Virus record (IMG/VR): IMGVR_UViG_3300037541_000632
Location: 1 to 64,000 of that record
DNA from: a virus
Direction: 5' to 3' (one strand)
Length of the DNA stretch: 64,000 nt
Shown here: positions 4,356-33,621 of the stretch, one piece after another
Position numbering within the stretch: the stretch's first letter is position 1
How the letters are laid out: the number at the start of each line of letters is the position of its first letter
Translations under genes and position numbers: made by a program
Notes under the pieces: model-generated
The model's input: the letters and a program-made list of their open reading frames with translations, nothing else
What the model was told of the DNA's origin: nothing
Databases searched by the model: none

Positions 4356-4356
4356 A

Positions 4357-11332: not shown

Positions 11333-12001
11333 TCAGGTCCAGAAATAGTTTCTGAACTTGATCATCTGAATCAGTATATTTTCATCTGTCTGGTCGATAA
11401 GAGCTTCCAGGCGATTTACTTCTTTGTACATATCTTGGTATTCCTCAATAGCACTAGGTTTAAGTAAAACAGATATATTCCGACTTGGATAAGCTTTGTC
11501 TTTTTCTTTTTCAAGATTAGCTCTTCCTTCGTTAATCCAAACGCACGCCGTATTTAGCCATGCTTTAAACTCAGCGTGTTCCTCGTGCGCCTGCCAGTCT
11601 ACCATTGATTCATCTGCTTCTTTTTTGAACTGCAGAATAGTAGCAAAGTTTACATACAAAATTATTGATGCGGTATCCGCATACCTTTTGGGTACAGCTT
11701 TCCTAATCATAGCGTTCTCTGGTACAAAGAATGTTTTTACCTTGTACCGCAGGGACCGCCATTTACGATAAAGCTTATACTCTATATCTTCAATAGCGTC
11801 ACGAATAGCATACTGAATAGGATGCGCCTTCATAACATTAACCCGCCACGCATCCCATTCTTCCATACTAGCCGCAAAAGGAACGCTATAAAAATAACCT
11901 TTGAATTCTAGATATTTAAACAACTTGGAAAAAATACCACGTTGCAGTCTTATTTCTTTAATTTGTTCTTCAGTCATTGTGTAGGCTTTTTGATTTTTCA
12001 T
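11333..12001 (-). CDS. hypothetical protein
   Basis: 222 aa ORF with ATGA overlap to the upstream gene. Confidence 0.7.
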   Translation of the reverse strand: MKNQKAYTMTEEQIKEIRLQRGIFSKLFKYLEFKGYFYSVPFAASMEEWDAWRVNVMKAHPIQYAIRDAIEDIEYKLYRKWRSLRYKVKTFFVPENAMIRKAVPKRYADTASIILYVNFATILQFKKEADESMVDWQAHEEHAEFKAWLNTACVWINEGRANLEKEKDKAYPSRNISVLLKPSAIEEYQDMYKEVNRLEALIDQTDENILIQMIKFRNYFWT

Positions 12002-13876: not shown

Positions 13877-13965
13877 CCACTTTTTGTTTATTTGTAGCTT
13901 CCCCAATTTTTAAGAGCACCCGACAAATTGCGCATCGTTGAGAGGCGTGCCGAGTATACAATAAA

Positions 13966-15592: not shown

Positions 15593-15666
15593 TGGTAGCC
15601 CTCCCAGGACTCGAACCTAGAACGAGAGAATCAAAATCTCCTGTGTTACCTTTACACCAAAGGGCT
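15593..15666 (-). tRNA. tRNA-Gln(TTG)
   Basis: Cloverleaf, loop TTTTGAT, encoded CCA. Confidence 0.9.
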
Positions 15667-16609
15667 ATAATCTGATGTTGCCTGAAGCAAGCTCAAACTT
15701 ATAATTCATATACGTCTGAGTAATTCCTTCTTCAAGTTTTATCTTTGGACTCCAGCCAATATATCTCATTCTACTAGAATCCATGATTTTACGCATAGTT
15801 CCGTCAGGCTTACTGCTGTCAAAGTTAATGGTGCCTTTAAAACCAACAGTAGATGCAATTAACGTAGCTAGGTCCTTGATACTAATGTCAGAACCATAAC
15901 CGACATTATAAATATATTGGCATGTGGTTAGCTCCATTAATAGTTTACAAGCTTTCGCCAGATCATCTACATGTAGGAACTCGCGCATGGGCGCGCCCGT
16001 ACCCCACAGAGTAACTGTGTCTTCTTTTCTAATATACTGAGAAGCCTCAAAGAATCTGCGAATTAATGCCGGGAGTACGTGACTAGTTTCTAGATTATAG
16101 TTATCTCCCGGACCATACAGGTTGCATGGCATAAGCGCTAGATATTCCAATCCCTTAGCCTTGCGATAATACTCACAGAGTTTTACACCGCATATTTTAG
16201 CCAGGGCATAAGCTTCATTAGTCTTCTCCAAAGGACCAGCAAGTAAATCAGCTTCAGAAATAGGACGATCAAATCCTTTTGGATAAATACAGGAGCTGCC
16301 AAAATAAATTAATTTAGGTACATTGTATTTAGCTGCAGTGTTAATACAGTTGTTAGCAATGGCCATGTTGTCTGTAAAGAATTCTACAGGGTTATTAGCA
16401 TTAGCTAAAATACCTCCAACTTTACCTGCAGCCACAATCACAGCCTGGATAGGCCCTTTGTATTTAAAGTAATAATCTACAGCTTGTGCATCGCACAAAT
16501 CAAGTTCCTGCCTCGTGGGTGCAAGCACATGATATTTTGTTTCATTGTTAAGCAATCTATGAATTGCTTTACCTACCATTCCATTAGCGCCTAATAACAG
16601 TACAGTCAT
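15665..16609 (-). CDS. fcl: GDP-L-fucose synthase
   Basis: GANGMVG, AGKVGGILAN, GSSCIYP, YALAK, PCNLYGPGDN, SHVLPALI, REFLHVDD and KPDG motifs. Confidence 0.95.
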   Translation of the reverse strand: MTVLLLGANGMVGKAIHRLLNNETKYHVLAPTRQELDLCDAQAVDYYFKYKGPIQAVIVAAGKVGGILANANNPVEFFTDNMAIANNCINTAAKYNVPKLIYFGSSCIYPKGFDRPISEADLLAGPLEKTNEAYALAKICGVKLCEYYRKAKGLEYLALMPCNLYGPGDNYNLETSHVLPALIRRFFEASQYIRKEDTVTLWGTGAPMREFLHVDDLAKACKLLMELTTCQYIYNVGYGSDISIKDLATLIASTVGFKGTINFDSSKPDGTMRKIMDSSRMRYIGWSPKIKLEEGITQTYMNYKFELASGNIRL

Positions 16610-16724: not shown

Positions 16725-16895
16725 TTAATAAATTTTTTCGATCTTAGCTACTTCTTCCCTCATCTTTTCATTAGAGGAAACAGTGTTGGCAAAATCAATC
16801 ATCTTATCACGAATATCATTGAGTTCCTCGCGGGTATAATCCCACGTATCTTCAAGATCTTGAATGTGGCGTTCTAGTTCTTTAGTCGCGGACAT
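16725..16895 (-). CDS. small coiled-coil protein (56 aa, not in ORF track)
   Basis: MSATKELERHIQDLEDTWDYTREELNDIRDK...; overlaps the upstream stop. Confidence 0.55.
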   Translation of the reverse strand: MSATKELERHIQDLEDTWDYTREELNDIRDKMIDFANTVSSNEKMREEVAKIEKIY

Positions 16896-17223
16896 TGCGT
16901 TTGGACATTTCGAAGTAATCGAATTCCTGCGCGATGACCAGCTCCCATTCCCCGGGAGGAACGGTTAGCGTGTCATGCCGCTCTGCGATAACACAACGTA
17001 CCTCTGCTGGCACGGAGTTACGCAAGAAGCGCTTGTTATCTTTCTTTAGAACCTCAACGCCAGGAAGGACATCGAGCACATGGTGGTTGCCGGTGGTTTC
17101 ACTATCAGCGATAATCAGACAGTTGTTCTCCACTTTGACAGGTGTAGCGTCAGCAGGGATTTTGGACTGAATGATTCCGCACTCGCCGTGGAGGATTGCT
17201 TTAGCTGCTTTAACGTTTTTCAT
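16882..17223 (-). CDS. His-containing cupin-like partner of DUF6745-like protein
   Basis: HGE...SETTGNHH...HDT...PPG.W....QEFD...R.V.D resembles the QGDV/GExTGHxH/HEEH/QREY family; start moved to MKNVK. Confidence 0.65.
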   Translation of the reverse strand: MKNVKAAKAILHGECGIIQSKIPADATPVKVENNCLIIADSETTGNHHVLDVLPGVEVLKKDNKRFLRNSVPAEVRCVIAERHDTLTVPPGEWELVIAQEFDYFEMSKRNVRD

Positions 17224-17308: not shown

Positions 17309-18346
17309 TTAAGCGACGCCAACGATTTCTACGTTACGACCATAACGATCTTCTAACGCAGCTTCAATGGTTTTGCAACTAGGAGACACAGCCTCGACAT
17401 GCCAGATCTTTGTGGTCTGATTTAGCATCTTAAGGTGCGGCGCATAGTCGACATTAGGAAAGAGCGACTGCATATCCCAAAGCTCATACTCAGATTTGGT
17501 GTACCACTCGTCATTGTATGATGTATGAGAATCCACTTTTTTACCCATTTCAAGCAAACGCTCAACACCGATTTTGCGAACAAACTCGGCTTTAATGTCG
17601 GCATTCTTGATTTCGTGAATCCGCTCCACTGGAATTTTCTGCGCAGGAGTGACTGCGAGCCACTCTGGTACAGTCACGCCGTTGAGAGCGAAAATCTTAA
17701 TGTCGCCGTAGCCTTCATACACGACAGCAGGTCCGCCGTCGCAGTGAATAACACCAGCATCATTGAGTTTAACCAGAGATGGCTTCTCAGAAACAATGCA
17801 CATGTCCTGCACAGTGCCGGTGACGCCATGAATTGGGTAAATCAAACCAAGCTCTGTAGTAGTCTTCCAGATCTCGTAAAGTTCATCAACGCTGAGCTTA
17901 GACTCGTTTTTGGCCGCGTTGTCTACAGGTGTTCCGGTAGTTTCCAACGCAATTCCAAGTTCATACTTGAAGAAGTCGTAGAAAGCAAAGGTCGGAGCCG
18001 AGAACGAACCATTAAGATAAGGGGAAACATATTGTGTAAGTTTCCATTTCGGTCTTTTACCATTAAAGAAGTCGTCTACGCATTTCTTCAGCTCATTGAT
18101 TGCATGGCCGTGAGCTGCATAGTTACAAGCAACCCAAGCTTCCATCGGGTTGTTGAATATGATAACAGGAGTAGGCTCCTTATTAAGAATGTGACGCTGG
18201 ACATTTTGAATAATGTCTAGCGTACGATCATAGTTGAGACGTGCGGTATCATTACCAATCTTTATCCACTTAGCGACATACTCAGGCATTTTAGCTTTCT
18301 GCTCAGGAGTAAGTTCGGCGATCTTTTCTTTAATTTTGTTTTCCAT
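17309..18346 (-). CDS. DUF6745-like protein
   Basis: LTPEQ...KW..IG N-terminus, AFYDFF, SEKP...IHCDGGPAVVY...LNGVTVP, I.NA..K....KIG motifs. Confidence 0.75.
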   Translation of the reverse strand: MENKIKEKIAELTPEQKAKMPEYVAKWIKIGNDTARLNYDRTLDIIQNVQRHILNKEPTPVIIFNNPMEAWVACNYAAHGHAINELKKCVDDFFNGKRPKWKLTQYVSPYLNGSFSAPTFAFYDFFKYELGIALETTGTPVDNAAKNESKLSVDELYEIWKTTTELGLIYPIHGVTGTVQDMCIVSEKPSLVKLNDAGVIHCDGGPAVVYEGYGDIKIFALNGVTVPEWLAVTPAQKIPVERIHEIKNADIKAEFVRKIGVERLLEMGKKVDSHTSYNDEWYTKSEYELWDMQSLFPNVDYAPHLKMLNQTTKIWHVEAVSPSCKTIEAALEDRYGRNVEIVGVA

Positions 18347-18394
18347 GTTGAGTGTCTTTCAGTTTTATTGTTGTTTATATGTTATTAGTAGCGA

Positions 18395-19498
18395 TTAGCT
18401 TACGCCATAAGCGAAGGCACGATAGTCTAATACAGTTTCTGTAACCTTAGCTTGAAGTTTAACACTTTCTCCCTTGCTGTTCTTGAACACGAAGGTTTTA
18501 CCATCCTTACTGGCAGACACCAGATCGGTAGGAATAAATTCTGCGGTGACAAAGTCAGAATCATTATCTTCGTGATTTTTATCAATGTCAGTACGCTTAT
18601 ATTTATGATAGTAAATTTTAATACGATCACCCATAGGTTTACCAACAAAGTCACCGTTAGTAACGACATGCGTGTCAGGATAACCGGCAACACTGATTGT
18701 GGCGGTATAAGTATTTGAATCCTCGTACTCAGGCTTGATGTTAAGTAGACTAATAGCCTCAAACGGATCTTCGTTGAAGCGATTCATTTCCTCGACTAGG
18801 GCCTGTAGCATATCAAAATTAAAGGCGCTGAATAGCGTCTTTATACGAACGATATGATCGATTTGCGATTTATCGTTCAAATTGTCTTCGCAGTATTCAC
18901 GAATGAACTGCTCCTCAATGCCTTTGTAGTCGATGGAATAGAAGATACGCCCGGGACGGTTGCGCATGTTAATATCCAACTTCCACTTGTCATTGACGGT
19001 GAAAACATAAAGCTTGTTGGTAGGGTAAATACCATCCAACAAAGTGAGAACTTCCTTTTGCTTCTCCATGTCATAAACCTTTTCGAACTCATCGAAAAGA
19101 ATAACAGCAGGCTGTTCGATCTTTTGTAGCATATTGAAGAACGCATCACCTACGCGCGGGGTGTTAATAACAATCACAGGGAAATCTTTTGCCTGCGCAA
19201 AGCACGCCAACGTTTTAGCCAGCAAAGACTTACCGGAACCCTTTTCACCGCATAGAAGGACACCTGTAGCTGTATTTCTTTTTTCGTAGCTATACAAAAT
19301 ACGCTCGGCATATTTATCATTATGCCCGTACCTCTTTTGAGGTATATTAAAATTATCGATTTTCTCCAGCATGAGCTCCTCTGTTATCGGGTGCGCTCGA
19401 ATAGAATAAACTGCCGGAGGAAGCCTATCTTTAAAATTCATTAATTCCGGGTCGCGTAGAAGAACTGTACTGCCTTGGATACTAAAGATTGTGGACAT
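18395..19498 (-). CDS. AAA+ ATPase
   Basis: Walker A GEKGSGKS, Walker B ILFDEFEK, RPGR arginine finger; start moved to MSTIF. Confidence 0.9.
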   Translation of the reverse strand: MSTIFSIQGSTVLLRDPELMNFKDRLPPAVYSIRAHPITEELMLEKIDNFNIPQKRYGHNDKYAERILYSYEKRNTATGVLLCGEKGSGKSLLAKTLACFAQAKDFPVIVINTPRVGDAFFNMLQKIEQPAVILFDEFEKVYDMEKQKEVLTLLDGIYPTNKLYVFTVNDKWKLDINMRNRPGRIFYSIDYKGIEEQFIREYCEDNLNDKSQIDHIVRIKTLFSAFNFDMLQALVEEMNRFNEDPFEAISLLNIKPEYEDSNTYTATISVAGYPDTHVVTNGDFVGKPMGDRIKIYYHKYKRTDIDKNHEDNDSDFVTAEFIPTDLVSASKDGKTFVFKNSKGESVKLQAKVTETVLDYRAFAYGVS

Positions 19499-19523
19499 TG
19501 TGCTTTTAATTTTGGTGTGTGGT

Positions 19524-19922
19524 TTAAGCCGGAACAAATTTCTTAACTGCTAGCTTTTCTACTTCACTAAATGGACGGTTCTCTTTACCGAACCTATAAT
19601 CCGTCTCATGAAGAATATATAAATTACAATTCAAGTCATTAGCGACTTGTTGTAGTTTTTCAGAATCGTCTGCTAGATCCAAATCTCCCCACCAAATTTT
19701 ACCTTGGTCAGTGACCACATTAGCATTGAATACTGCTTGGTTGTTTGGTCTTTCAGATATGTACATACTTTTGCTAGAAGCAATCATTCGAGATAACTCG
19801 AATCCATGTTTCCGCATTACTTTTAATTCTGTGGCATGCCTCTGTGTTACTTGCGTAACTTCTGCATGAAATTCTTCATTCTGAGATTGCATATTTTTAT
19901 TCTGCGATTGCGTCTTTTTCAT
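19524..19922 (-). CDS. hypothetical protein
   Basis: ORF with FNANV...KIWWGDLDL motif. Confidence 0.7.
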   Translation of the reverse strand: MKKTQSQNKNMQSQNEEFHAEVTQVTQRHATELKVMRKHGFELSRMIASSKSMYISERPNNQAVFNANVVTDQGKIWWGDLDLADDSEKLQQVANDLNCNLYILHETDYRFGKENRPFSEVEKLAVKKFVPA

Positions 19923-20202
19923 TTATCAAATCATACCATTCTTTTGGAATGTCTACTACCTGATCGGTAACTAAAGCTGATCCATTGTCTTTGTCTATTT
20001 GTTCGATTGCGCGTTTCAAGTAAATAGCCTTATCAAGAGTTTCCTCGTAGGCATGCTGCAACCACTGTTTTAAAGACAAATCATTGTCTCTCACAGTGCT
20101 ATTATATTTTTTAATACCCATTTGTTGTCTGCGAGAAATATCTGCATGAAATTCTTCATTCTGAGATTGCATATTTTTATTCTGCGATTGCGTCTTTTTC
20201 AT
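19897..20202 (-). CDS. chimeric ORF built from pieces of three neighbouring genes
   Basis: N-terminus from 19524-19922, middle from 20571-20831, C-terminus from 20177-20632. Confidence 0.5.
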   Translation of the reverse strand: MKKTQSQNKNMQSQNEEFHADISRRQQMGIKKYNSTVRDNDLSLKQWLQHAYEETLDKAIYLKRAIEQIDKDNGSALVTDQVVDIPKEWYDLINEKDAIAE

Positions 20203-20632
20203 TTATCAAATCATACCATTCTTTTGGAATGTCTACTACCTGATCGGTAGTAACATAAAAAACTGAAGTTATCGCGGGCATAGCAGATTCAAAAACTTCT
20301 TGTAAAAGAAGCAGCACTTCTACAACACCCGCAGTTGAAGCGAAATACTGAACTCTACTCTCCGCTGGAAAAAGAAGAGTGAATATTTTAGTATCTGACT
20401 TAAATTTATTAGCTGCCTTAGCGGCGGCTTGCGCATTAGTTTTCTCTGCGTCCTTAGCTAAGATGGCTTGTTGCTTCAAGTCAGCAATACTAGCTGAAAT
20501 CGCCATATACTCAGCCACCCTAGCCTTCTTAATTTCTTTAGTCGGAGAAGAATTAATATCTGAATTGATTTTAGCTGCTCTTGCTTTCAGAGCCACTAGC
20601 TTGTGATTGATGGTAACTAAAGCTGATTCCAT
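20177..20632 (-). CDS. hypothetical protein
   Basis: 151 aa ORF. Confidence 0.65.
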   Translation of the reverse strand: MESALVTINHKLVALKARAAKINSDINSSPTKEIKKARVAEYMAISASIADLKQQAILAKDAEKTNAQAAAKAANKFKSDTKIFTLLFPAESRVQYFASTAGVVEVLLLLQEVFESAMPAITSVFYVTTDQVVDIPKEWYDLINEKDAIAE

Positions 20633-20831
20633 TGTCTTTGTCTATTTGTTCGATTGCGCGTTTCAAGTAAATAGCCTTATCAAGAGTTTCCTCGTAGGCA
20701 TGCTGCAACCACTGTTTTAAAGACAAATCATTGTCTCTCACAGTGCTATTATATTTTTTAATACCCATTTGTTGTCTGCGAGAAATATCTGCACAAACAT
20801 CCGCCTCAGTACCAATAACATTTATTTCCAT
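20571..20831 (-). CDS. conserved phage helical protein
   Basis: R...GIKKY...WLQHAYEE.LD.AIYL motif; likely start MEIN. Confidence 0.7.
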   Translation of the reverse strand: MEINVIGTEADVCADISRRQQMGIKKYNSTVRDNDLSLKQWLQHAYEETLDKAIYLKRAIEQIDKDNGISFSYHQSQASGSESKSS

Positions 20832-20883
20832 GGTGCGCGTGTTATACAATTGGCTTTGCATTCACGCAATACCAAAGTGTAAA

Positions 20884-21264
20884 TTATACGTTAGCGTTGT
20901 ATACCTTGAGTATGTTATTAGCCAATACACGACAAGATTCACGGTCACGATTAAATGTACCGTCTGATCTTTTAGGCGAAGCTATAAGAAGTAAAGTAGA
21001 TTCATATTCAGCTAACTGCGCTCTAAGATCTTTAATCTTAGTTTCTAGCGTTGTAACTAAATTCTTACTTATCTTTTTGTTTATACTTTTATCGCTAATT
21101 TTTGATATAATTTTTTTGTCGCACCATTCATCGTGTTTAGCGATAGGATCTTCTTCTGAACAAGTACACCAAGCACACTGACGTGCATTAGTGGTAGGTA
21201 CGGTTTTTTTATTAGAGACAGAGAATGACTGTCCTAGCGACTTTGGTATATCTAATCCATTCAT
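20884..21264 (-). CDS. hypothetical protein
   Basis: ORF with CxxC..H...C. Confidence 0.6.
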   Translation of the reverse strand: MNGLDIPKSLGQSFSVSNKKTVPTTNARQCAWCTCSEEDPIAKHDEWCDKKIISKISDKSINKKISKNLVTTLETKIKDLRAQLAEYESTLLLIASPKRSDGTFNRDRESCRVLANNILKVYNANV

Positions 21265-21436
21265 CTTTTGTAGATTGTTCTAGCTCATTCCATTTTCTGC
21301 GTTCCGGGTAAACCTTGGACCAGATTATTTCGGCCATAAGTTCCAGGTCTTGAATATCAGTAAGGGTGGTTTCACAACACTCACGATCTGTACAATCATA
21401 AGGTGTCGGACAATTTTGGCATGTGATAAAAAACAT
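21212..21436 (-). CDS. small Cys-rich protein
   Basis: CQNCPTPYDC...CC. Confidence 0.55.
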   Translation of the reverse strand: MFFITCQNCPTPYDCTDRECCETTLTDIQDLELMAEIIWSKVYPERRKWNELEQSTKDEWIRYTKVARTVILCL

Positions 21437-21638
21437 TATGTGTTAAGGTTATCCTCAAAAAACTTATCCTCAAAAAATCATTTACATTATAAAATGTGCG
21501 TCTGAAAGTATGGTTCCAAATATGCGCGCGGAAACCAATATCACACAGAGAATTAATGCGTTTATTAAATTCTAAATGACAGCACGCATTATGCACGTCG
21601 CTCATTAATCTGTCATATACATGGGCTTCAAGTGTCAT
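21396..21638 (-). CDS. degenerate terminal member of SVxx array 1
   Basis: Starts MTLE at the same 11-nt junction but the repeat is eroded. Confidence 0.55.
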   Translation of the reverse strand: MTLEAHVYDRLMSDVHNACCHLEFNKRINSLCDIGFRAHIWNHTFRRTFYNVNDFLRISFLRITLTHNVFYHMPKLSDTL

Positions 21639-21831
21639 ATGATTCAATTAGTTTATCAATTTTGTTGTAAACATCTCTGCAAAAAGAATAACGAAAATAA
21701 TGCTGAACAGAGTCATCAACAGAATCAATAACAGAATTACGAACAGATTGCCGAGCAGAATTAAAAACAGAATTTAAAACAGAATTCCAAACAGAATCAT
21801 AAACATTATAAACAGAAGCTTCAAGTGTCAT
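21628..21831 (-). CDS. SVxx-repeat protein (array 1 unit 11)
   Basis: MTLE...SYDT; 11-nt overlap. Confidence 0.7.
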   Translation of the reverse strand: MTLEASVYNVYDSVWNSVLNSVFNSARQSVRNSVIDSVDDSVQHYFRYSFCRDVYNKIDKLIESYDT

Positions 21832-22039
21832 ATGATTTCATTAGATCTTTGATTGAATTATATACAGAATTATAAACAGAATCCCAAACAGGCTTACAAA
21901 CAGAATTACAAACAGAACTACGAACAGAATTATGAAAAGAATTATGAAAAGAATTAAAAACATAATTATCAACATAATTCCAAACATAATTATCAACATA
22001 ATTACAAACAGAATCACAAACAGATTCTCTAAGTGTCAT
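21821..22039 (-). CDS. SVxx-repeat protein (array 1 unit 10)
   Basis: MTLR...KSYDT. Confidence 0.7.
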   Translation of the reverse strand: MTLRESVCDSVCNYVDNYVWNYVDNYVFNSFHNSFHNSVRSSVCNSVCKPVWDSVYNSVYNSIKDLMKSYDT

Positions 22040-22247
22040 CGGATTTAATTAGGTTATAGACAGAATCACAAACAGAATTATAAACAGAGTCTTTAATAGA
22101 ATCCCAAACAGAATGACGAACATAATCCCAAACAGAATTATAAACAGAATAATAAACAGAATTATAAACAGAATCCCAAACAGAATTATAAACAGAATCA
22201 CGAACAGAATTATAAACAGAATCACGAACAGAATCTTTAAGTGTCAT
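22029..22247 (-). CDS. SVxx-repeat protein (array 1 unit 9)
   Basis: MTLK...KSDDT. Confidence 0.7.
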   Translation of the reverse strand: MTLKDSVRDSVYNSVRDSVYNSVWDSVYNSVYYSVYNSVWDYVRHSVWDSIKDSVYNSVCDSVYNLIKSDDT

Positions 22248-22467
22248 GAGATTTAATTAGGTTACAGACAGAATCCCAAACAGAATCCCAAACAGAATGA
22301 CGAACAGAATTCCAAACAGAATACTGAACAGAATTATTAACAGAATTCCAAACAGAATAATAAACAGAATACTGAACAGAATTATCAACAGAATTCCAAC
22401 CAGAATTATGAACAGAATTATCAACAGAGTCACGAACAGAATTATAAACAGAATATTCAAGTGTCAT
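22237..22467 (-). CDS. SVxx-repeat protein (array 1 unit 8)
   Basis: MTLE...KSHDT. Confidence 0.7.
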   Translation of the reverse strand: MTLEYSVYNSVRDSVDNSVHNSGWNSVDNSVQYSVYYSVWNSVNNSVQYSVWNSVRHSVWDSVWDSVCNLIKSHDT

Positions 22468-22651
22468 GTGATTTAATTAAGGTGTGAATTGAATTATAAA
22501 CAGAATCTTCAACAGAATCCCAAACAGAATCCCGAACAGAATTAAAAACAGAATCATAAATAGAATCATAAATAGAATCATAAACAGAATCCCAAACAGA
22601 ATTAAAAACAGAATTCCAAACAGAATTATAAACAGAATCTTTAAGTGTCAT
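22457..22651 (-). CDS. SVxx-repeat protein (array 1 unit 7)
   Basis: MTLK...KSHDT. Confidence 0.7.
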   Translation of the reverse strand: MTLKDSVYNSVWNSVFNSVWDSVYDSIYDSIYDSVFNSVRDSVWDSVEDSVYNSIHTLIKSHDT

Positions 22652-22883
22652 ATGATTTCACTAGGTCTTTGACTGAATTATATACAGAATCCCAAACAGA
22701 ATCCCAAACAGAAATATCAACAGAATCCCGAACAGAATTATAAACAGAATCCCAAACAGAATCCCAAACAGAATTATAAACAGAATCCCAAACAGAATTA
22801 TCAACAGAATCAAGAACAGAATCCCAAACAGAATTACGAACAGAACTATGAACAAAATTATAAACAGAATCTTTAAGTGTCAT
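22641..22883 (-). CDS. SVxx-repeat protein (array 1 unit 6)
   Basis: MTLK...KSYDT. Confidence 0.7.
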   Translation of the reverse strand: MTLKDSVYNFVHSSVRNSVWDSVLDSVDNSVWDSVYNSVWDSVWDSVYNSVRDSVDISVWDSVWDSVYNSVKDLVKSYDT

Positions 22884-23091
22884 GAGATTTAATTAGATCT
22901 TTAATTGAGCTATAAACAGAATCCCAAACAGAAATATCAACAGAATCCCGAACAGAATTATAAACAGAATCCCAAACAGAATTATAAACAGAATCCCAAA
23001 CAGAATTATCAACAGAATCAAGAACAGAATCCCAAACAGAATTACGAACAGAATTACGAACAGAATTATAAACAGAATCTTTAAGTGTCAT
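22873..23091 (-). CDS. SVxx-repeat protein (array 1 unit 5)
   Basis: MTLK...KSHDT. Confidence 0.7.
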   Translation of the reverse strand: MTLKDSVYNSVRNSVRNSVWDSVLDSVDNSVWDSVYNSVWDSVYNSVRDSVDISVWDSVYSSIKDLIKSHDT

Positions 23092-23299
23092 GTGATTTAA
23101 TTAGGTTGGTAATTAAATTATAAACAGAAACGCGAACAGAGTTATTAACAGAATCAGAAACAGAGTTATAAACGGAATCAACAACAGAATCAACAACAGA
23201 ACCACGAACAGATTTATGAACAGAGTGCCGAGTAGAATTTAAAACAGAATTCCAAACAGAATTCCAAACAGAATTATAAACAGCGTGGTCAAGTGTCAT
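23081..23299 (-). CDS. SVxx-repeat protein (array 1 unit 4)
   Basis: MTLD...KSHDT. Confidence 0.7.
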   Translation of the reverse strand: MTLDHAVYNSVWNSVWNSVLNSTRHSVHKSVRGSVVDSVVDSVYNSVSDSVNNSVRVSVYNLITNLIKSHDT

Positions 23300-23471
23300 A
23301 TGATTTCACTAGGTCTTTGATTGAATTATATACAGAATCCCAAACAGAATCCCAAACAGAATTATAAACAGAATCCCAAACAGAATTATCAACAGAATCA
23401 AGAACAGAATCCCAAACAGAATTACGAACAGAATTACGAACAGAATTATAAACAGAATCTTTAAGTGTCAT
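23289..23471 (-). CDS. SVxx-repeat protein (array 1 unit 3)
   Basis: MTLK...KSYDT. Confidence 0.7.
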   Translation of the reverse strand: MTLKDSVYNSVRNSVRNSVWDSVLDSVDNSVWDSVYNSVWDSVWDSVYNSIKDLVKSYDT

Positions 23472-23667
23472 GTGATTTAATTAGATCTTTAATTGAGCTA
23501 TAAACAGAATCATGAACAGAAATCCGAACAGAGTCACGAACAGAATTATGAACAGAAACACAAACAGAATCCCAAACAGAATTATGAACAGAATTATGAA
23601 CAGAATTCCAAGCAGAACTATGAACAGGCTTACGAACAGAATAATAAACAGAATATTCAAGTGTCAT
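23461..23667 (-). CDS. SVxx-repeat protein (array 1 unit 2)
   Basis: MTLE...KSHDT. Confidence 0.7.
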   Translation of the reverse strand: MTLEYSVYYSVRKPVHSSAWNSVHNSVHNSVWDSVCVSVHNSVRDSVRISVHDSVYSSIKDLIKSHDT

Positions 23668-23875
23668 ATGATTTCACTAGGTCTTTGATTGAATTCCAAA
23701 CAGAATACTGAACAGAATTCCAAACAGAATTATTAACAGAATTCCAAACAGAATTCCAAACAGAATAATAAACAGAATCCCAAACAGAATTATCAACAGA
23801 ATCAAGAACAGAATCCCAAACAGAATTACGAACAGAATTACGAACAGAATTATAAACAGAATCTTTAAGTGTCAT
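23657..23875 (-). CDS. SVxx-repeat protein (array 1 unit 1)
   Basis: MTLK...KSYDT; ATGA overlap with the upstream gene. Confidence 0.7.
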   Translation of the reverse strand: MTLKDSVYNSVRNSVRNSVWDSVLDSVDNSVWDSVYYSVWNSVWNSVNNSVWNSVQYSVWNSIKDLVKSYDT

Positions 23876-24444
23876 GCGCTTATCCAGTCAGGTTTATTCT
23901 GTATCCACTTATGTAAGTGCTGTTTACCTGCTATGTAAAAATTACGATAGGCCTGCACCGAGTCTTCGCATTTAAATTCATCAGGCATCGCCTGCGCAAA
24001 TTCCGTTATAGATCCTTCAGGTACAAGACTATGCTGTAAATTTAGTTGAACCCAATTAATAAAAGGAATGCAGAAATGCTGTGCGGGCGCGCTATTAACA
24101 ATATCCGGGGCGTGAGGCTTACCTTCCTCTTTTAATTTAAGCAGCTCTTGTGCTTTCAGCCTATAACGCTGAATTCTTTCTGTATCCATGGCAAATGCAT
24201 GTGCAATTAACCACCTCATATTCTCCCGGGATACGCGGACCCATTTACTGCAGGGATGGTTGTAATGCGCGTATTTACGCACTGTACCTGCCTGAGTCCT
24301 AGGACAAGTCTCGTCAGCCAACTGCTCCGGTGAAAAGCAGTTGGCTAACATCTGAGCAGATTCCAATACCATTTTCACGACATGGGAATCTACAAGGTGT
24401 CTCGCCGACTTGACGGGGCACCTGTAAATTGCGAAGATATTCAT
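23872..24444 (-). CDS. pyrimidine-dimer DNA glycosylase-like protein
   Basis: MNIF...HVVKM.LESAQML...HYNHPCSKW...QAMPD...AYR.FY family pattern. Confidence 0.75.
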   Translation of the reverse strand: MNIFAIYRCPVKSARHLVDSHVVKMVLESAQMLANCFSPEQLADETCPRTQAGTVRKYAHYNHPCSKWVRVSRENMRWLIAHAFAMDTERIQRYRLKAQELLKLKEEGKPHAPDIVNSAPAQHFCIPFINWVQLNLQHSLVPEGSITEFAQAMPDEFKCEDSVQAYRNFYIAGKQHLHKWIQNKPDWISA

Positions 24445-24707
24445 TTAGCAAATTCTTTTGCCTTATCCCACTTTAACCAGACTCGAGGTCTTTCATCCTC
24501 GATATAATCAGAGAAATCATTTAAATCTCTCTCATCCTGCACATAGGCAGCGGCTTGAAATAAACCGTTGTCTACAACACAGACAAGGTTCTCTTCCCAT
24601 TCTTTGGGAGCGTCTGGAAGCAATATAGCTCCAGCTTTAATTAAATCTTCATCCTTATCAAGATATTTCAGCGGACCTGAAGGTGTGTGATTGATATACT
24701 TACCCAT
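24441..24707 (-). CDS. conserved phage hypothetical protein
   Basis: VCVVDNGLF.AA...D.RP..W motif. Confidence 0.7.
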   Translation of the reverse strand: MGKYINHTPSGPLKYLDKDEDLIKAGAILLPDAPKEWEENLVCVVDNGLFQAAAYVQDERDLNDFSDYIEDERPRVWLKWDKAKEFAK

Positions 24708-24713
24708 ACAATA

Positions 24714-25406
24714 CTATATAACACTAATACCCACATCTGTTGCATTGACTGATTCACCGGTATCTGGAGTAGACACCGCCTCTTCCTTATTACCTTTAGC
24801 CCTTGAAGGCTTCACTTCACCTTTACGCTCCCAAGCATTTCTACAGTAAAGTATAACATGTTTTGGTTGTAAGATTTCAGGAGGTTCTACAATAGTACTT
24901 GTGTAGCCGTGCGCGTACTTAACAGTTTTAACTTTTCCGGCGTTAGAATTTTTTACACTTATAGGTAAAAGTCTACGCCCACAAATTCTAAAAGAACGAG
25001 ATTTAGGGAAAATCTGATTCTCATGCATATCAATAGTAAAATAAACCTGCCCTCTTACAAAGTTACGTTGCCTTCCCAGCACATTAAATGCACAAGAAAT
25101 TCTATTATTTTCGCTTACCATAGTTATATTTAATACACCTCCGTAACTAACAGCGGCGTGATTAATTTTTACTTTTAACAATTTCATGAAGAAGTAATCC
25201 ATAGTTTTTGGATTATCCTCATTAAGGATCATTGTAGCGATTTCTCGAGCGGTGAAGTTTCTTGCAAACATTGAACTTTTTATTTGTTCTATTCCTTGGG
25301 ATATATACAAACTAATGTTATTTATATAAATTTTAGAAACATTTTCTTTTACTAATCCAAATTTATTTAAAATATAAGAAGATAATTTGGCACTGTTAAA
25401 TGTCAT
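24714..25406 (-). CDS. hypothetical protein
   Basis: 230 aa ORF. Confidence 0.65.
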   Translation of the reverse strand: MTFNSAKLSSYILNKFGLVKENVSKIYINNISLYISQGIEQIKSSMFARNFTAREIATMILNEDNPKTMDYFFMKLLKVKINHAAVSYGGVLNITMVSENNRISCAFNVLGRQRNFVRGQVYFTIDMHENQIFPKSRSFRICGRRLLPISVKNSNAGKVKTVKYAHGYTSTIVEPPEILQPKHVILYCRNAWERKGEVKPSRAKGNKEEAVSTPDTGESVNATDVGISVI

Positions 25407-25411
25407 GCTTT

Positions 25412-25786
25412 TTAGGATTTATAATCAATAGACTCTATAAGATTATAAAAAGGAACTAACTTTACACTGTAACCAGCATCTAATAGCTTATTAAACATTT
25501 CTTCTGCAGCTAAGACATTATGCGAATGCACTACTATTTTATTAATTGATTTAGTGCGTGGCTGCTCGCAAAGATAACGCACAACCTCCATACCGCAGTC
25601 TTCCCGGGAAGAGTTGACGTAAGCCTCGCCTCCTAAATCATGGTCCAGGAATAACCAGTCAATATTTATGCTATCCTTTATTAGTTTAATACACTGTTCC
25701 GCAGTCTCAGCACGAACAGCTTGTGGTATCTTGGATTGGAATTTATACCACCGTTGATGGTCATCATCTAAAAAAATAATTCTCAT
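25412..25786 (-). CDS. cyclic-phosphate-processing receiver-like domain protein
   Basis: FLDDD, LDHDLG and VHSHN motifs. Confidence 0.75.
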   Translation of the reverse strand: MRIIFLDDDHQRWYKFQSKIPQAVRAETAEQCIKLIKDSINIDWLFLDHDLGGEAYVNSSREDCGMEVVRYLCEQPRTKSINKIVVHSHNVLAAEEMFNKLLDAGYSVKLVPFYNLIESIDYKS

Positions 25787-26367
25787 AGTTTAAAAGCAAC
25801 TTTCTGTAACCAGTTATTAAATTTTTCTAACTTATAATGAATGGATAACAATACTTTACTAATAGCACGCGCTACCTTACCCCGAAAGGTTTTATAGTAA
25901 GCAGCGTCCGCTTCCATGATTTTCATTATCTCATTATTGCGCTCAATCCTAGGAGTCGGATCTTTTTCTTCGTATTCAATGCATTCCATACTAACTAGAA
26001 CACCATTCACTAATTTAACTTTTAGCTCAATTGAAATATCGATGGTGTCGCTATTGTAATAATCATATAGACAAATTGTATCAGTAATTAATTCAGGATT
26101 ACAGCTTCTAGCTGTTTCATTAAAATGAAAACCGAAGATTTCATTTGGGTTTTCATTTTTAACAAACTCTCCTTCCACCTCGTCTTTATGAAACATATAC
26201 GCACCATCCACATTTTTAAAATGGTAGGTTTGTAGTGCGTTATATAAATCTTTTGTTTGAAAGTCAGTGACTTCGTGCTTGAGTAAACTCGCATATTTTT
26301 GAATGCATGTGTCCTCCTGAGCTTTCAGAAGTTCAACTGGAACATGGACTGTGTCGTACATTCCCAT
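25783..26367 (-). CDS. conserved phage hypothetical protein
   Basis: MGMYD...FQTKDL motif. Confidence 0.7.
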   Translation of the reverse strand: MGMYDTVHVPVELLKAQEDTCIQKYASLLKHEVTDFQTKDLYNALQTYHFKNVDGAYMFHKDEVEGEFVKNENPNEIFGFHFNETARSCNPELITDTICLYDYYNSDTIDISIELKVKLVNGVLVSMECIEYEEKDPTPRIERNNEIMKIMEADAAYYKTFRGKVARAISKVLLSIHYKLEKFNNWLQKVAFKL

Positions 26368-26371
26368 AATT

Positions 26372-26830
26372 TTATGCTTCTATTTGTTCTGGTAAGTTAA
26401 GGATTTTCATGAAGGATTCATAAGCCATATGTCTGACTTTATCCTTCACACATGAGAAACCTTCACGCGCATCGATGTCATACTCCAATGCAGTGTACAG
26501 CAGAGGCAACATTTTGAGCATGTAATAAACACGGTTACTCATAACATAATTATCTCTGGACCTATCCATAAGACCTTTCTCTTCCAGAATATCTATAGTA
26601 TTTAATAATACTTCAGTCATTTGATGATTTGCCTCATCCAGGATTCCTCTCAATCCTTTATGACTTGCTTCAAACATTTTAGAATAAGCATCGCTCTTTT
26701 TACTTTCCTCTTTTGCCTGAGTACAAAGAGCATCAATAACTGAAGCAATATCCTGCTCAGTAATTTTAGAAACAGTAGCTACTGCTTCATTTAAGAATTC
26801 TTGTCTTGTTTTTGGGATTTCAGTTTCCAT
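26372..26830 (-). CDS. hypothetical protein
   Basis: ORF; likely start METE. Confidence 0.65.
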   Translation of the reverse strand: METEIPKTRQEFLNEAVATVSKITEQDIASVIDALCTQAKEESKKSDAYSKMFEASHKGLRGILDEANHQMTEVLLNTIDILEEKGLMDRSRDNYVMSNRVYYMLKMLPLLYTALEYDIDAREGFSCVKDKVRHMAYESFMKILNLPEQIEA

Positions 26831-26834
26831 GCTG

Positions 26835-27056
26835 TTATTGGTATGCGCTACCGGGCTGTCCTGGTTCATTGCTGTTTGTGCAGGCGAGGCTGTGGTCAGT
26901 AACATGCGGGCAGCGTTTATTACCGCATGTGCTACACACTACCATCCACCACGCGTGTGGATTACATTTTCTACAACTACAATCCGGATTTGGTATTACC
27001 TTATCCGGATTGAGCTTGTAATAAAAAGGATCGCTTTCTTTTAGCTGTTCACTCAT
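26835..27056 (-). CDS. small zinc-finger-like protein
   Basis: CSCRKC...CSTCGNKRCPH...CTNSNEPGQ.GS motif. Confidence 0.7.
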   Translation of the reverse strand: MSEQLKESDPFYYKLNPDKVIPNPDCSCRKCNPHAWWMVVCSTCGNKRCPHVTDHSLACTNSNEPGQPGSAYQ

Positions 27057-27297
27057 CTATTTCAGATATTGTATATTGATCTGCAGCCCAACAAATATAA
27101 GGAGCGCGTCCCGTATGTCTGAAGGCAGTTAAATCATCAGCATCATCAGCATTCCATTCCTTAACATCTTTAGTGACGTTAGTAATAGAATTAGTGAAAC
27201 GGACAATCTTACCTCTAGCTAAAATGTCTTCAATAAGCTGCCGCCTGCTTTTTAGGTCAGGCGACAGATCCCGTTCTGGAACAAGTCTTGCGCTCAT
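27049..27297 (-). CDS. hypothetical protein
   Basis: Tiling ORF. Confidence 0.55.
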   Translation of the reverse strand: MSARLVPERDLSPDLKSRRQLIEDILARGKIVRFTNSITNVTKDVKEWNADDADDLTAFRHTGRAPYICWAADQYTISEIDE

Positions 27298-27719
27298 TAT
27301 ACTAAATATTTATCTTTAAATTCGGTTACTTCATCTTTCAGCTTATGCCAGTAAGTGGTTGACTCAACCATCCAGCATTGCTCATCAGGAAATGTAGCTA
27401 GCTGTTGAGCCGCATGATGCAAAGAAAAAAGACATGCACAAAGCGCAAGGTTCTTAGCAGCATCCCGCAGTGTTTTAAACTTAATGTCCATACCTAAACT
27501 TATGTCTTCTGGGATAGCGGGTATATTGACATGAATCGAGTATGTAGACTCACAAAATTCAATACTACAACTAATTCCTCTTTTGATAGTAATTCTATAC
27601 TCATCATCTCTGCCCAGACCATTTAAAGTTCTGGCAAATATGACAGTGGCTTTTTGTAAAAACTCTTCGTCACTCAAACTTGAATTATCTTCAATTATTT
27701 TATCTTTCATATTCTTCAT
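27297..27719 (-). CDS. hypothetical protein
   Basis: Tiling ORF; likely start MKNM. Confidence 0.6.
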   Translation of the reverse strand: MKNMKDKIIEDNSSLSDEEFLQKATVIFARTLNGLGRDDEYRITIKRGISCSIEFCESTYSIHVNIPAIPEDISLGMDIKFKTLRDAAKNLALCACLFSLHHAAQQLATFPDEQCWMVESTTYWHKLKDEVTEFKDKYLV

Positions 27720-28197
27720 GCTTAACTGATACAATATATTTTCTACCAAGACAATTGTGTATAATGTATTTGCTTTTATTAATTGTAGTCCCGTTTATAA
27801 GAGATATACCTGTTGAGTCAGGTAATTCTACTCTTTCATATAACACATAATCAAGCTTCCTTCCATTCCAGGCAGATTTATAGGGTCTTTTACCCCACAC
27901 TAAATCAGCCCGTTTGCAGTATCTACAAGTTACCAAAGCTGAGTTAGCGCTGCATTTGTTTAGAGCAGATTTTACTCGTGCATTCCAAGAACGTATATAA
28001 TTATTTAAAGACGCTCTTCTTTTTGTGATGCTCTCGTCTATCACTGGATGCCCATAAGATATAGGATGAATGTATTGACCATTACAACCGCACGTTTTAT
28101 AAAAAGTAGATGGAAATTCGTCGGAAGGCCAAGGTGAAAATGTAGGCAATTTATTACAACGCCAACACGGTAAAATTTCTAATTCTTTAGGTTTCAT
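27700..28197 (-). CDS. zinc-ribbon protein (Lar-like N-terminus)
   Basis: LPCWRC...WNAR and a second CRYC. Confidence 0.55.
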   Translation of the reverse strand: MKPKELEILPCWRCNKLPTFSPWPSDEFPSTFYKTCGCNGQYIHPISYGHPVIDESITKRRASLNNYIRSWNARVKSALNKCSANSALVTCRYCKRADLVWGKRPYKSAWNGRKLDYVLYERVELPDSTGISLINGTTINKSKYIIHNCLGRKYIVSVKHEEYER

Positions 28198-31132: not shown

Positions 31133-31427
31133 ATTTATTTACTTTATCTACCATGCGCGCGTGCATGGCTTCAGCGTCTTTCCATCCACCAGAGCAGCGA
31201 TCTTGCTCATGATGAAGTTCTCCTCCAAAGACCATGGTCTCCCAAAGAACAGGAGGCCCATCACCAAAGCTATGGTCCAGTCCAAGGAATACTGTGGAGA
31301 CTTCCACACCATCAATCTTGTCAAAGGCAACACGACGCTTACTGATCGCAGCCATCCATGTTCCCCATTTAAGTAAATCAGGTTCTACTACGGGATTTTT
31401 GTTTTCGTCTAGAATGTATTTATTCAT
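31119..31427 (-). CDS. conserved phage hypothetical protein
   Basis: VSTVFLGLDH.F...PP.LWETMVFGG motif. Confidence 0.75.
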   Translation of the reverse strand: MNKYILDENKNPVVEPDLLKWGTWMAAISKRRVAFDKIDGVEVSTVFLGLDHSFGDGPPVLWETMVFGGELHHEQDRCSGGWKDAEAMHARMVDKVNKYEKD

Positions 31428-31671
31428 AATTATTTACTTTGGTTTTAAGCTTATTGTTAATAATGCTCTTCACCGATTTGTAGGCAGAATTATCAACAGA
31501 ATCCCAAACAGAATCCCAAACAGAGTCTTTAATAGAATCCCAAACAGAATTATAAACAGAATGACGAACAGAATCCCAAACAGAATACAAAACAGAATTA
31601 CGAAAAGAATCCAGAACAGAATTCCAAACAGAATTATCAACAGAGTCACGAACAGAATCTTCAAATGTCAT
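31420..31671 (-). CDS. SVxx-repeat protein (array 2 unit 8)
   Basis: MTFE...; divergent C-terminus. Confidence 0.7.
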   Translation of the reverse strand: MTFEDSVRDSVDNSVWNSVLDSFRNSVLYSVWDSVRHSVYNSVWDSIKDSVWDSVWDSVDNSAYKSVKSIINNKLKTKVNNYE

Positions 31672-31867
31672 ATGCTTTTATTAGTGTGTTAATTGAATTA
31701 TCAACAGAGTAACAAACGGGCTTACAAACAGGCTTACAAACAGAGTTAAGAACAGAAGACCAAACAGAATTATAAACAGAATCACGAACAGAATACAAAG
31801 CAGAAGACCAAACAGAATTATAAACAGAATCACGAACAAAATCCCGAACAGAATCTTCAAGTGTCAT
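31661..31867 (-). CDS. SVxx-repeat protein (array 2 unit 7)
   Basis: MTLE...KAYDI. Confidence 0.7.
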   Translation of the reverse strand: MTLEDSVRDFVRDSVYNSVWSSALYSVRDSVYNSVWSSVLNSVCKPVCKPVCYSVDNSINTLIKAYDI

Positions 31868-32087
31868 ATGCTTTTATTAGGTTGGTAATTGAATTATAAA
31901 CAGAATCTTCAACAGAATCATAAATAGAATTCCAAACAGAATTACGAACAGAATCCCAAACAGAAATATCAACAGAATAATAAACAGAATAATAAACAGA
32001 ATTATAAACAGAATCCCAAACAGAATTATAAACAGAATCACGAACAGAATCCCAAACAGAATCCCGAACAGAATCTTCAAGTGTCAT
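31857..32087 (-). CDS. SVxx-repeat protein (array 2 unit 6)
   Basis: MTLE...KAYDT. Confidence 0.7.
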   Translation of the reverse strand: MTLEDSVRDSVWDSVRDSVYNSVWDSVYNSVYYSVYYSVDISVWDSVRNSVWNSIYDSVEDSVYNSITNLIKAYDT

Positions 32088-32271
32088 ATGCTTTTATTAG
32101 GTTGGTAATTGAATTATAAACAGAATCCCAAACAGAATCCCGAACAGAATTATAAACAGAATGACGAACAGAATCCCAAACAGAATCCCGAACAGAATTA
32201 TCAACAGAATCCCAAACAGAATTATAAACAGAATAACAAACAGAATACAAAGCAGAATGCTCAAGTGTCAT
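32077..32271 (-). CDS. SVxx-repeat protein (array 2 unit 5)
   Basis: MTLE...KAYDT. Confidence 0.7.
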   Translation of the reverse strand: MTLEHSALYSVCYSVYNSVWDSVDNSVRDSVWDSVRHSVYNSVRDSVWDSVYNSITNLIKAYDT

Positions 32272-32467
32272 ATGATTTCATTAGATCTTTGATTGAATTA
32301 TATACAGAATCCCAAACAGAATTATCAACAGAATCCCAAACAGAATGACGAACAGAATCCCAAACAGAATCCCGAACAGAATTATCAACAGAATCCCAAA
32401 CAGAATTATAAACAGAAGTACAAAAAGAGGCACGAACAAAATAATAAACAGATTCTTCAAGTGTCAT
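32261..32467 (-). CDS. SVxx-repeat protein (array 2 unit 4)
   Basis: MTLE...KSYDT. Confidence 0.7.
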   Translation of the reverse strand: MTLEESVYYFVRASFCTSVYNSVWDSVDNSVRDSVWDSVRHSVWDSVDNSVWDSVYNSIKDLMKSYDT

Positions 32468-32567
32468 ATGCTTTTATTAGATTGGTGATTGAGTTATAAA
32501 CAGAATCTTCAACAGAGTCCCAAACAGAATTATTAACAGAAATACGAACAGAATCTTCAAGTGTCAT
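32457..32567 (-). CDS. SVxx-repeat protein (array 2 unit 3, 36 aa, not in ORF track)
   Basis: MTLEDSVRISVNNSVWDSVEDSVYNSITNLIKAYDT. Confidence 0.7.
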   Translation of the reverse strand: MTLEDSVRISVNNSVWDSVEDSVYNSITNLIKAYDT

Positions 32568-32763
32568 ATGCTTTTATTAGGTTATACACAGAATTATAAA
32601 CAGAATTATAAACAGAAACACGAACAGAATTACCAACAGAACGCCAAACAGAAATATTAACAGAATTACTAACAGAATCCCAAACAGAATTATCAACAGA
32701 ATTCCGAACAGAATTACGAACAGAATCCCAAACAGAATTCCAAACATATTCTTCAAGTTTCAT
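32557..32763 (-). CDS. SVxx-repeat protein (array 2 unit 2)
   Basis: MKLE...KAYDT. Confidence 0.7.
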   Translation of the reverse strand: MKLEEYVWNSVWDSVRNSVRNSVDNSVWDSVSNSVNISVWRSVGNSVRVSVYNSVYNSVYNLIKAYDT

Positions 32764-32971
32764 AGGATTTTATTAGATTGGTGATTGAATTATATACAGA
32801 ATTATAAACAGAAACACGAACAGAATTACCAACAGAACGCCAAACAGAAATATTAACAGAATAATAAACAGAACTTTGAACAGGATTACTAACAGAATCA
32901 TTAACAGAATCAAGAACAGAATTACAAACAGAATTAAGAACAGGATCCCAAACAGAAGCTTTAAGTGTCAT
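32753..32971 (-). CDS. SVxx-repeat protein (array 2 unit 1)
   Basis: MTLK...KSYET; start moved to the conserved ATGACACTTAA. Confidence 0.7.
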   Translation of the reverse strand: MTLKASVWDPVLNSVCNSVLDSVNDSVSNPVQSSVYYSVNISVWRSVGNSVRVSVYNSVYNSITNLIKSYET

Positions 32972-32988: not shown

Positions 32989-33621
32989 TCAATAATACCG
33001 GGTGTGTTGGCCGATGCGTACACCTGCTTTTTTAAATATATTTTTAGTGTTTTTCATGTCAGTAAAGTAGTCAAGTGGTTGCAGTACAGTAGGTAATTGT
33101 TGTTCAAGTATAGTGTCACACACGCCTGTAAAACCATTATTCCAGTCTCGCCTAATACGGGTCCAAGAATAGAATAATAGATTGTTATTAGCGCAACGAG
33201 ATATAGCCGCAATATCCAATGGTAGGTTATGCGTCAAAGCCATACTCAATGCCATAGTTTCGGCATCATGCTCAAGCGCCAGTGTGTTTCTAAACGCTAA
33301 TTCTATCTCTGGTTTAGAAAGAACAATAGATCTGTTCAACCAGTTAATATATTTATACGTACCTTCCTTATGCAAATAATGCCATAATTCAGTCTTATCT
33401 CTGTGCTGAATGAAATGGGCATACTCGTGCAAAAATGTATATACACTAAATGATCCCTGTCCCATAGCCACAGTCAGTGAATTACGCGCAGCATCAAATG
33501 TCCCAGAGTATTTATTATTAATTACTCTCTTATTAGTTAAATGAACACTGATTCCATGTTGAATCAGTTCTTGTACTTTGGAGCCTATGAATTCGAGGCA
33601 CCTAGAGGGAATGGTATCCAT
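32989..33621 (-). CDS. HExxH zinc metallopeptidase-like protein
   Basis: FLHEYAH...LEHDAE. Confidence 0.65.
   Translation of the reverse strand: MDTIPSRCLEFIGSKVQELIQHGISVHLTNKRVINNKYSGTFDAARNSLTVAMGQGSFSVYTFLHEYAHFIQHRDKTELWHYLHKEGTYKYINWLNRSIVLSKPEIELAFRNTLALEHDAETMALSMALTHNLPLDIAAISRCANNNLLFYSWTRIRRDWNNGFTGVCDTILEQQLPTVLQPLDYFTDMKNTKNIFKKAGVRIGQHTRYY

Follow-up and report, generated by a model that had tools for sequence, protein, structure and literature searches.

Two arrays of chained mini-genes in one viral genome fragment

We examined a 64,000-nucleotide stretch of viral DNA (hereafter the window), positions 1 to 64,000 of IMG/VR virus record IMGVR_UViG_3300037541_000632, which carries chained mini-genes built from variable Ser-Val-x-x (S-V-x-x) tetrapeptides together with a gene for a DUF6745-like protein, P0029. 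The record is a linear 101-kb metagenome-assembly fragment, estimated to be 56% complete and carrying seven solid tRNAs. The open reading frame (ORF) listing of the window revealed 11 chained minus-strand ORFs of 60-80 aa within 21628-23875 (array 1; Table 1), each consisting of an N-terminal cap (N-cap), MTL(K/E/D/R), then 13-17 S-V-x-x tetrads, and a C-terminal cap (C-cap), L(I/V/M)(K/E)S(Y/H/D)DT, followed by the stop codon. An earlier reading of the letters alone (hereafter the original prediction) had described these 11 units plus one degenerate copy, all of which we recovered, the last as a cap-only ORF without Pfam or PHROG match that is possibly a decayed unit. That reading had overlooked another eight units of this family, chained as array 2, which was found via two further junctions in a genome-wide pattern search and has a syntenic counterpart in another viral contig, L092. 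This brings the total to 19 units, with none further in the 101 kb of the record; across both arrays the units are 36-83 aa long, and every unit starts at an ATG of its own and ends in its own stop.

All internal junctions of array 1 read ATGACACTT(A/G)A, with the next ATG 8 nt ahead of the stop, so that neighbouring units overlap by 11 nt and each is shifted by +1 in frame. Shine-Dalgarno sites are absent at the array junctions and present in only 18 of the 87 long ORFs of the genome; translational coupling forced by a missing ribosome-binding site was discarded as an explanation because the lack of such motifs is genome-wide and nothing special to the arrays. A single polyprotein made by +1 frameshifting at ACT-TAA was likewise rejected, since every unit has its own ATG and other arrays use other junctions, and by our reasoning the P-site tRNA would not re-pair after such a slip. 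Promoter-like sites were fewer among the eleven units than in shuffles, a count that is uninformative if the promoter type of the organism differs from the type scanned, and the only terminator-like site, absent from the eleven units, lies in the cap-only ORF at 21583-21597. Searches of Pfam and PHROG with the array units returned no match, nor did megablast of positions 18000-28000 against phages.

Repeat composition and evidence for coding

The predicted combination of an MTL cap, S-V-x-x tetrads, a C-cap, and a near-fixed TCTGTT was confirmed by the ORF listing and by a profile of 236 tetrads, in which positions 1-6 of the 12-mer (TCTGTT) are 93-100% fixed, positions 7-10 are variable, and positions 11-12 are ~90% AT. 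Among 201 strict S-V tetrads, serine is encoded by TCT in 199 and valine by GTT in 193, while the first variable residue (x1) is W/Y/R/D and the second (x2) is N/D. The tetrad vocabulary is small (103 distinct 12-mers among 271, with SVWD and SVYN occurring 42 times each), and blocks recur between units as had been claimed; for example, the tetrad run YN RN RN WD LD DN WD is common to the units starting at 23875, 23471, 23091, and 22883.

Two arguments of the original prediction carry less weight than it gave them. Unit lengths in multiples of 4 aa do hold for all units of array 1 except unit 11 (67 aa), a regularity that is trivial given fixed caps and a 12-nt repeat. Similarly, none of the 11 units contains an internal stop, but the other two frames are likewise open across array 1 (ILFx and FCxx readings), so that openness of the S-V-x-x frame is by itself no evidence of coding.

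Better evidence came from comparison with other viruses. A protein search found capped relatives of the units in other metagenomes, and a scan of viral contigs for related arrays or tracts returned 26 loci. Over the 27 loci compared, each locus keeps almost invariant codons for Ser and Val, and these differ from one locus to the next, the codon pairs being TCT/GTT, TCA/GTG, AGC/GTT, AGC/GTG, AGT/GTG, TCG/GTG, TCA/GTA, TCT/GTA, TCC/GTG, and AGT/GTT, including switches between the serine families TCN and AGY; throughout, x1 stays W/R/Y/G/S and x2 stays N/D. Since Ser-Val is kept with different codons between loci, selection acts on the protein while the DNA is homogenised within each locus, making it very unlikely that the repeat serves purely as DNA or RNA. 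Judged from these codon patterns, the units are protein-coding in the S-V-x-x frame. The earlier description of the units as selected and recombining is thus supported by frozen silent sites, variable x1 and x2, blocks shared between units, and the concentration of sister-contig differences in arrays (see below).

Separately, ARAGORN called a tRNA-Ser(aga) at 1101-1175 on the minus strand, with an anticodon that would pair with UCU, a codon that the arrays contain ~200 times. The call is 75 nt long, lacks a long variable arm, has a mismatched anticodon stem, and falls under the Rfam tRNA threshold; it is probably a decayed or atypical tRNA, and we dropped the link with the TCT codons because of its poor quality.

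The units are detached copies of a tract internal to DUF6745 proteins

Used as a query, unit 6 matched 1265 longer proteins at E<=1e-3 (best 1.2e-41), scores that low-complexity similarity can inflate. The DUF6745 domain (PF20530) is present in 99 of the 120 best of these longer matches, and on this sequence evidence the units are free-standing copies of the tract that DUF6745 proteins carry internally. In such proteins the tract is embedded between an N-terminal helical part and the PF20530 domain; each unit here has a separate ATG and stop, which makes the units a detached variant, not members of the domain family. The orphan peptide system that the original prediction implied thus gives way to detached tract copies beside a repeat-less DUF6745 gene.

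That gene encodes P0029, which matches PF20530 just below the gathering score of 27 (25.3 bits by hmmscan, 25.9 bits in the genome search) and phrog_31813 at E 1.5e-8, and whose homologues comprise 2694 cluster representatives. A period-4 tract occurs at one fixed site in 49 of the 150 best P0029 homologues, at about residues 70-90 between a PLxAW motif and a WPY..G.F motif, and its fixed pair varies by lineage (QV, SV, NL, KV, EV, and others). P0029 has an ordinary non-repeat linker at this site. A protein of contig L102 combines S-V-x-x x28 with PF20530, and P0029 aligns with it immediately after its tract.

A second family with an internal S-V-x-x tract was observed in L101 (5635-6366), L119 (779-1468), L124 (768-1526), L114 (1420-2265), L118, and L109; its conserved C-terminal domain after the tract bears the motif GLVPSFDGK.WRLH and has no Pfam match. 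The genome of the window holds no member of this second family.

Arrays are linked to repeat-less DUF6745 genes

Of the 16 viral records with arrays, eight contain PF20530, among them all three with a completeness of 88% or more, and the domain was found in none of 46 unselected viral records or 14 control genomes; a Fisher estimate for 8/16 versus 0/46 is about 4e-6, with control records that were not size-matched. When the array neighbourhoods were clustered by BLAST, a DUF6745-like family was the only one common to arrays of differing cap types (9 of the 16 records). Its gene usually adjoins the array directly, and all of the copies in array-bearing records are without tract.

In the window P0029 is followed by a small cupin-like ORF, and three other records likewise have this ORF next to DUF6745-like genes. 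A similar arrangement was noticed in Microcystis phage Ma-LMM01, a cultured and published phage in which gp175 stands next to gp174 (L145, 6552-8083), both annotated as hypothetical. By sequence these two are probably a pair of cupin-like and repeat-less DUF6745-like genes, though pairwise similarity is weak; the pair could serve as an experimental model.

Predicted docking of a unit onto P0029

Modelled alone, unit 1 forms one helix over residues 3-71 (pLDDT 86, pTM 0.38) and P0029 adopts a confident fold (pLDDT 91.6). For the latter, Foldseek found no match in PDB at E<=0.001 and the best Z of a wide VIA-align search of solved structures was 3.7, a missing match that is no evidence of a new fold. 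A complex of P0029 with unit 1 reached an ipSAE of 0.82 in three runs versus 0.00 for the best of three controls. By comparison, 58 of 80 solved complexes attained this mark, as did 2 of 110 mismatched pairs. In these models the unit keeps a pLDDT of at least 83 and the contacts agree between runs by at least 47%, while the pLDDT of the unit falls to 30 when an unrelated protein takes the place of P0029 as chain 1.

The modelled contact residues of P0029 (7-32, 52-78, 98-138, 149-176, and 189-225) flank the tract site, through residues 67-78 and 98-138. On the side of unit 1, 15/15 Ser, 15/15 Val/Ile, and both caps are in contact, and the 12 tetrad residues outside the contact list are all x1 (four) or x2 (eight). 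A constant Ser/Val face opposite a variable face, as had been proposed from the letters, is thus echoed in the complex, within the limits of a model. The prediction supports binding between P0029 and the units without showing it.

Related arrays and their speed of change

Related arrays in other viruses contain up to 36 units (Table 1), with junctions that vary between arrays (ATGA overlaps or short spacers) and an own ATG in every unit. Searching other phage genomes for the junction motif had been suggested as a check, and a scan of viral contigs with the junction 18-mer gave 92 single hits, among which only L092 held real units; the others look like chance. One further viral contig, L103 (1-3408), holds S-V-x-x frames of >300 aa that are open at the contig end, instead of short capped units.

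Sister contigs that are otherwise near-identical differ mainly in their arrays. Between L104 and L107 there are six differences in 6.2 kb, 6/6 of which fall within the 415-bp array; between L111 and L112, which are 99.3% identical across a 22-unit array, the array accounts for 77 of the 90 differing positions, mostly through gains or losses of tetrads; and in L125 two units have merged to one. By these alignments, arrays are the fastest-changing part of such contigs.

Units are also found fused to other domains. In relatives P0020 and P0025 a unit continues in frame into a homologue of the 74-aa ORF that follows array 1 in the window (80% identity over 41 aa, E 2e-23), and in relatives P0004 and P0012, as well as at the head of the L092 array, an N-terminal domain precedes the tract and cap. 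The caps thus serve as joints at which genes split and fuse.

Table 1. Arrays, units, and associated genes in the window, with related arrays from other viral contigs
Feature	Position	Strand	Remarks
Cupin-like ORF	16882..17223	-	113 aa from its ATG; motifs LHGECG, TTGNHHV, ERHD
P0029, repeat-less DUF6745-like protein	17309..18346	-	345 aa; modelled docking partner of units
74-aa ORF	21212..21436	-	homologue fused in frame behind unit in P0020, P0025
Cap-only ORF (12th)	21396..21638	-	starts MTLEA; no S-V-x-x tract
Array 1 unit 11	21628..21831	-	67 aa; repeat register broken close to C-end
Array 1 unit 10	21821..22039	-	72 aa; several YVxx and SFxx tetrads
Array 1 unit 9	22029..22247	-	72 aa
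Array 1 unit 8	22237..22467	-	76 aa
Array 1 unit 7	22457..22651	-	64 aa
Array 1 unit 6	22641..22883	-	80 aa; query for search of longer proteins
Array 1 unit 5	22873..23091	-	72 aa
Array 1 unit 4	23081..23299	-	72 aa
Array 1 unit 3	23289..23471	-	60 aa
Array 1 unit 2	23461..23667	-	68 aa
Array 1 unit 1	23657..23875	-	72 aa; ATG overlaps stop of upstream gene (ATGA)
Upstream gene, Pyr_excise-like	23872..24444	-	phrog_624; stop overlaps unit 1 start; operon context only
Array 2	31420..32971	-	8 chained units of array 1 family; starts 32971, 32763, 32567 (36-aa mini-unit), 32467, 32271, 32087, 31867, 31671
L116			36 units; caps MKLGKSIKDKV ... PKIKL
L111 / L112			22 units; caps MNKINDSV ... DYFKQK
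L122			19 units; caps MNLENV ... PIREERKQG
L117			18 units
L105 / L108			7 and 3 units on one 170-kb contig; caps MKTLGKPV ... SVRGIK
L104 / L107 / L115 / L125			1-3 units each; caps MITEEKILNSV ... LEYAYDY
L092			3 units; window's own caps; syntenic with array 2

Other genes in the window

Several further genes were noted around the arrays. Directly upstream of array 2 lies a 210-aa ORF (32989-33621, minus strand) that is conserved and syntenic in L092 and weakly matches DUF6782, a putative metallopeptidase family (E 0.004). The minus-strand gene at 25412-25786, some 1.5 kb upstream of array 1, codes for 124 aa and contains a cREC_REC domain (cyclic-phosphate processing receiver; E 3.4e-19), and a match to abiF RNA (RF03085; 41.2 bits versus a gathering score of 37) stands at 13918-13954, also on the minus strand.

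A transketolase-like protein (3150-4481, minus strand; phrog_34187, E 2.9e-199) shares 68.5% identity with its counterpart in Prochlorococcus phage P-TIM68 and 59% with the one in Synechococcus phage S-SM2, which hints at a cyanophage-like gene pool, while other genes are not closest to cyanophages; matches of the Pyr_excise-like gene are mostly to Synechococcus phages. Genes at 33585-35716, 11998-13752, and 15665-16609 make up a set of sugar and sulfate enzymes comprising an APS kinase (PF01583, 1.6e-25), a GT2 glycosyltransferase, an NAD-dependent epimerase, and a protein of 538 aa whose matches to GT8 and sulfotransferase are weak and below threshold. From these annotations the set could serve phage-encoded modification of DNA or a sulfated glycan.

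Interpretation and alternative explanations

We consider it reasonably probable that the mini-genes encode detached DUF6745-tract helices that dock in trans on the tract-less P0029 and serve phage-host conflict. Under this explanation the 19 units would be separate small proteins, each one long predicted alpha-helix between fixed caps (MTL- and -LIKSYDT), that arose as duplicated, detached copies of the hypervariable tract found internally in many phage and prophage DUF6745 proteins, the window's own DUF6745-like protein having presumably lost its tract. The mini-proteins would most likely dock onto P0029 through their caps and Ser/Val residues, leaving part of x1 and x2 exposed, so that one constant P0029 core could carry ~19 alternative helices. 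The arrays may diversify in DNA by slippage, unequal recombination, or gene conversion among the 12-nt units, a process that would freeze silent sites, while selection would keep S-V and favour change at x1 (W/Y/R/D and others) and x2 (N/D). The docking itself is a modelled interaction, and the role is probably one in phage-host conflict, such as counter-defence tuning, by analogy with the tract protein gp54 of mycobacteriophage Tweety discussed below.

A more specific form of this explanation, in which the constant DUF6745 core and the ~19 shuffling helices form a combinatorial recognition system whose specificity repertoire is directed against variable host defence or target proteins, is in our view speculative and rather doubtful.

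Several observations weigh against docking in trans and the role that we attach to it. DUF6745 has no assigned function, and neither Foldseek on PDB nor VIA-align found a solved structural relative. The tract occurs in cis in relatives, so the high score of the docking model may reflect that likeness. Seven of the 16 array-bearing records are without detected DUF6745 (these records are 15-32% complete), and in one genome, G015, ~45 kb separate the observed array from the DUF6745 gene. Nor is the S-V-x-x tract exclusive to DUF6745, being found as well in the second family, which has no DUF6745 match (L101, L119, L124, L114, and L118). Finally, Tweety gp54 is not detectably homologous, so that the counter-defence role is drawn from analogy.

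Some of these points would fit mini-proteins that act without DUF6745, as free helical binders, decoys of host proteins, or self-associating helices, with the linkage reflecting ancestry and neighbourhood. Besides the seven records and the tracts in other protein families, the confident prediction of a lone unit as a single helix agrees with such a role. We nonetheless regard it as unlikely: the records lacking DUF6745 are fragments, adjacency to a repeat-less DUF6745 gene recurs across unrelated cap types, and the complex model passes its controls, with unit confidence falling beside an unrelated partner.

A further concern is that unit number and order are partly a short-read assembly artefact of the 12-nt repeat, and that the true locus has fewer, more, or reordered units. 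The record is indeed a linear and incomplete metagenome assembly in which long identical blocks recur among units, but caps and frame are intact in every unit, arrays of 18-36 units exist in independent assemblies, and the sister contigs L111 and L112 agree closely over 22 units, which together make a substantial artefact improbable. The idea that the repeat acts as DNA or RNA (a protein-binding array, a recombination hotspot, or a structured transcript) with incidental ORFs is close to refuted, since, for all the frozen silent sites within an array, the three open frames, and the strong AT skew and low GC across the array, Ser-Val is kept by different codons between loci (TCN versus AGY included), the caps are conserved at the protein level in other metagenomes, the tract lies in frame within >1000 longer proteins, and an Rfam search of the array matched no family.

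The finding of detached tracts places the tetrapeptide repeat in the very large DUF6745 family and shows it split, in some phages, into tens of independent genes. If the mini-proteins load onto a DUF6745 core, this would be a new viral route to a variable-surface repertoire from one scaffold and would give DUF6745 its first testable function. Further, gene callers and annotators will mishandle such arrays owing to their short, overlapping genes and three open frames, and a description of the pattern would aid phage annotation.

Comparison with known systems

Our literature searches found no paper naming DUF6745, none for S-V-x-x motif strings, and no published description of the detached-array layout. 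The closest relatives of the units are the DUF6745 proteins themselves (PF20530, phrog_31813), which share the S-V-x-x tetrad, the residue spectrum at x1 and x2, the 12-nt unit, and the frozen silent sites. They differ from the window in that their tract is internal, at one fixed site, whereas here there are 19 separate capped genes, and in P0029 a non-repeat linker takes the place of the tract.

Tweety gp54 is, to our knowledge, the only studied phage protein of a hypervariable tetrapeptide-tract build. It is an accessory protein with an A-A-x-x x48 tract, whose 12-bp unit is invariant in its first six bases and third codon positions and varies at the first and second positions of the x1 and x2 codons (PMC2884959). 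The claim that no described phage system resembles the locus accordingly holds for detached arrays, while hypervariable tetrapeptide tracts of phages had been published (PMC2884959). Escape mutants against the Phrann gp29/gp30 defence changed the repeat number of gp54, a counter-defence activity documented solely through M. smegmatis genetics (PMC9262239). Like the units, gp54 (with Che8 gp57 and PMC gp51) has a long tetrapeptide tract with a matching codon-position pattern; unlike them, it carries the tract between two domains of one protein, and the fixed pair is Ala-Ala, not Ser-Val. Its membership of DUF6745 is not supported, as it has no Pfam family and hhalign against the P0029 alignment gave a probability of 0.05.

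Variable region 2 of bbp36 in Bordetella phage BMP-1 is cited as similar by the Tweety paper (PMC2884959). As that citing text describes it, the region resembles the arrays in that short units repeat in frame, in varying copy number, within a phage gene that is not essential, and differs in its 24-bp unit, its single gene, and the absence of a known DUF6745 link.

Diversity-generating retroelements (DGRs) resemble the arrays in targeting variation to non-synonymous positions of a phage accessory gene. We rejected a DGR here, as no reverse transcriptase (PF00078) was found in the 101-kb, 56% complete record and the variable positions mix all four bases and are not adenine-restricted; for these reasons we take the mechanism to be repeat shuffling. 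The variation in the arrays, unlike that of DGRs, consists of shuffled whole 12-mers and blocks. Set beside these systems, the locus is a fast-diversifying library of detached-tract mini-genes, a new organisational variant of a known hypervariable phage repeat.

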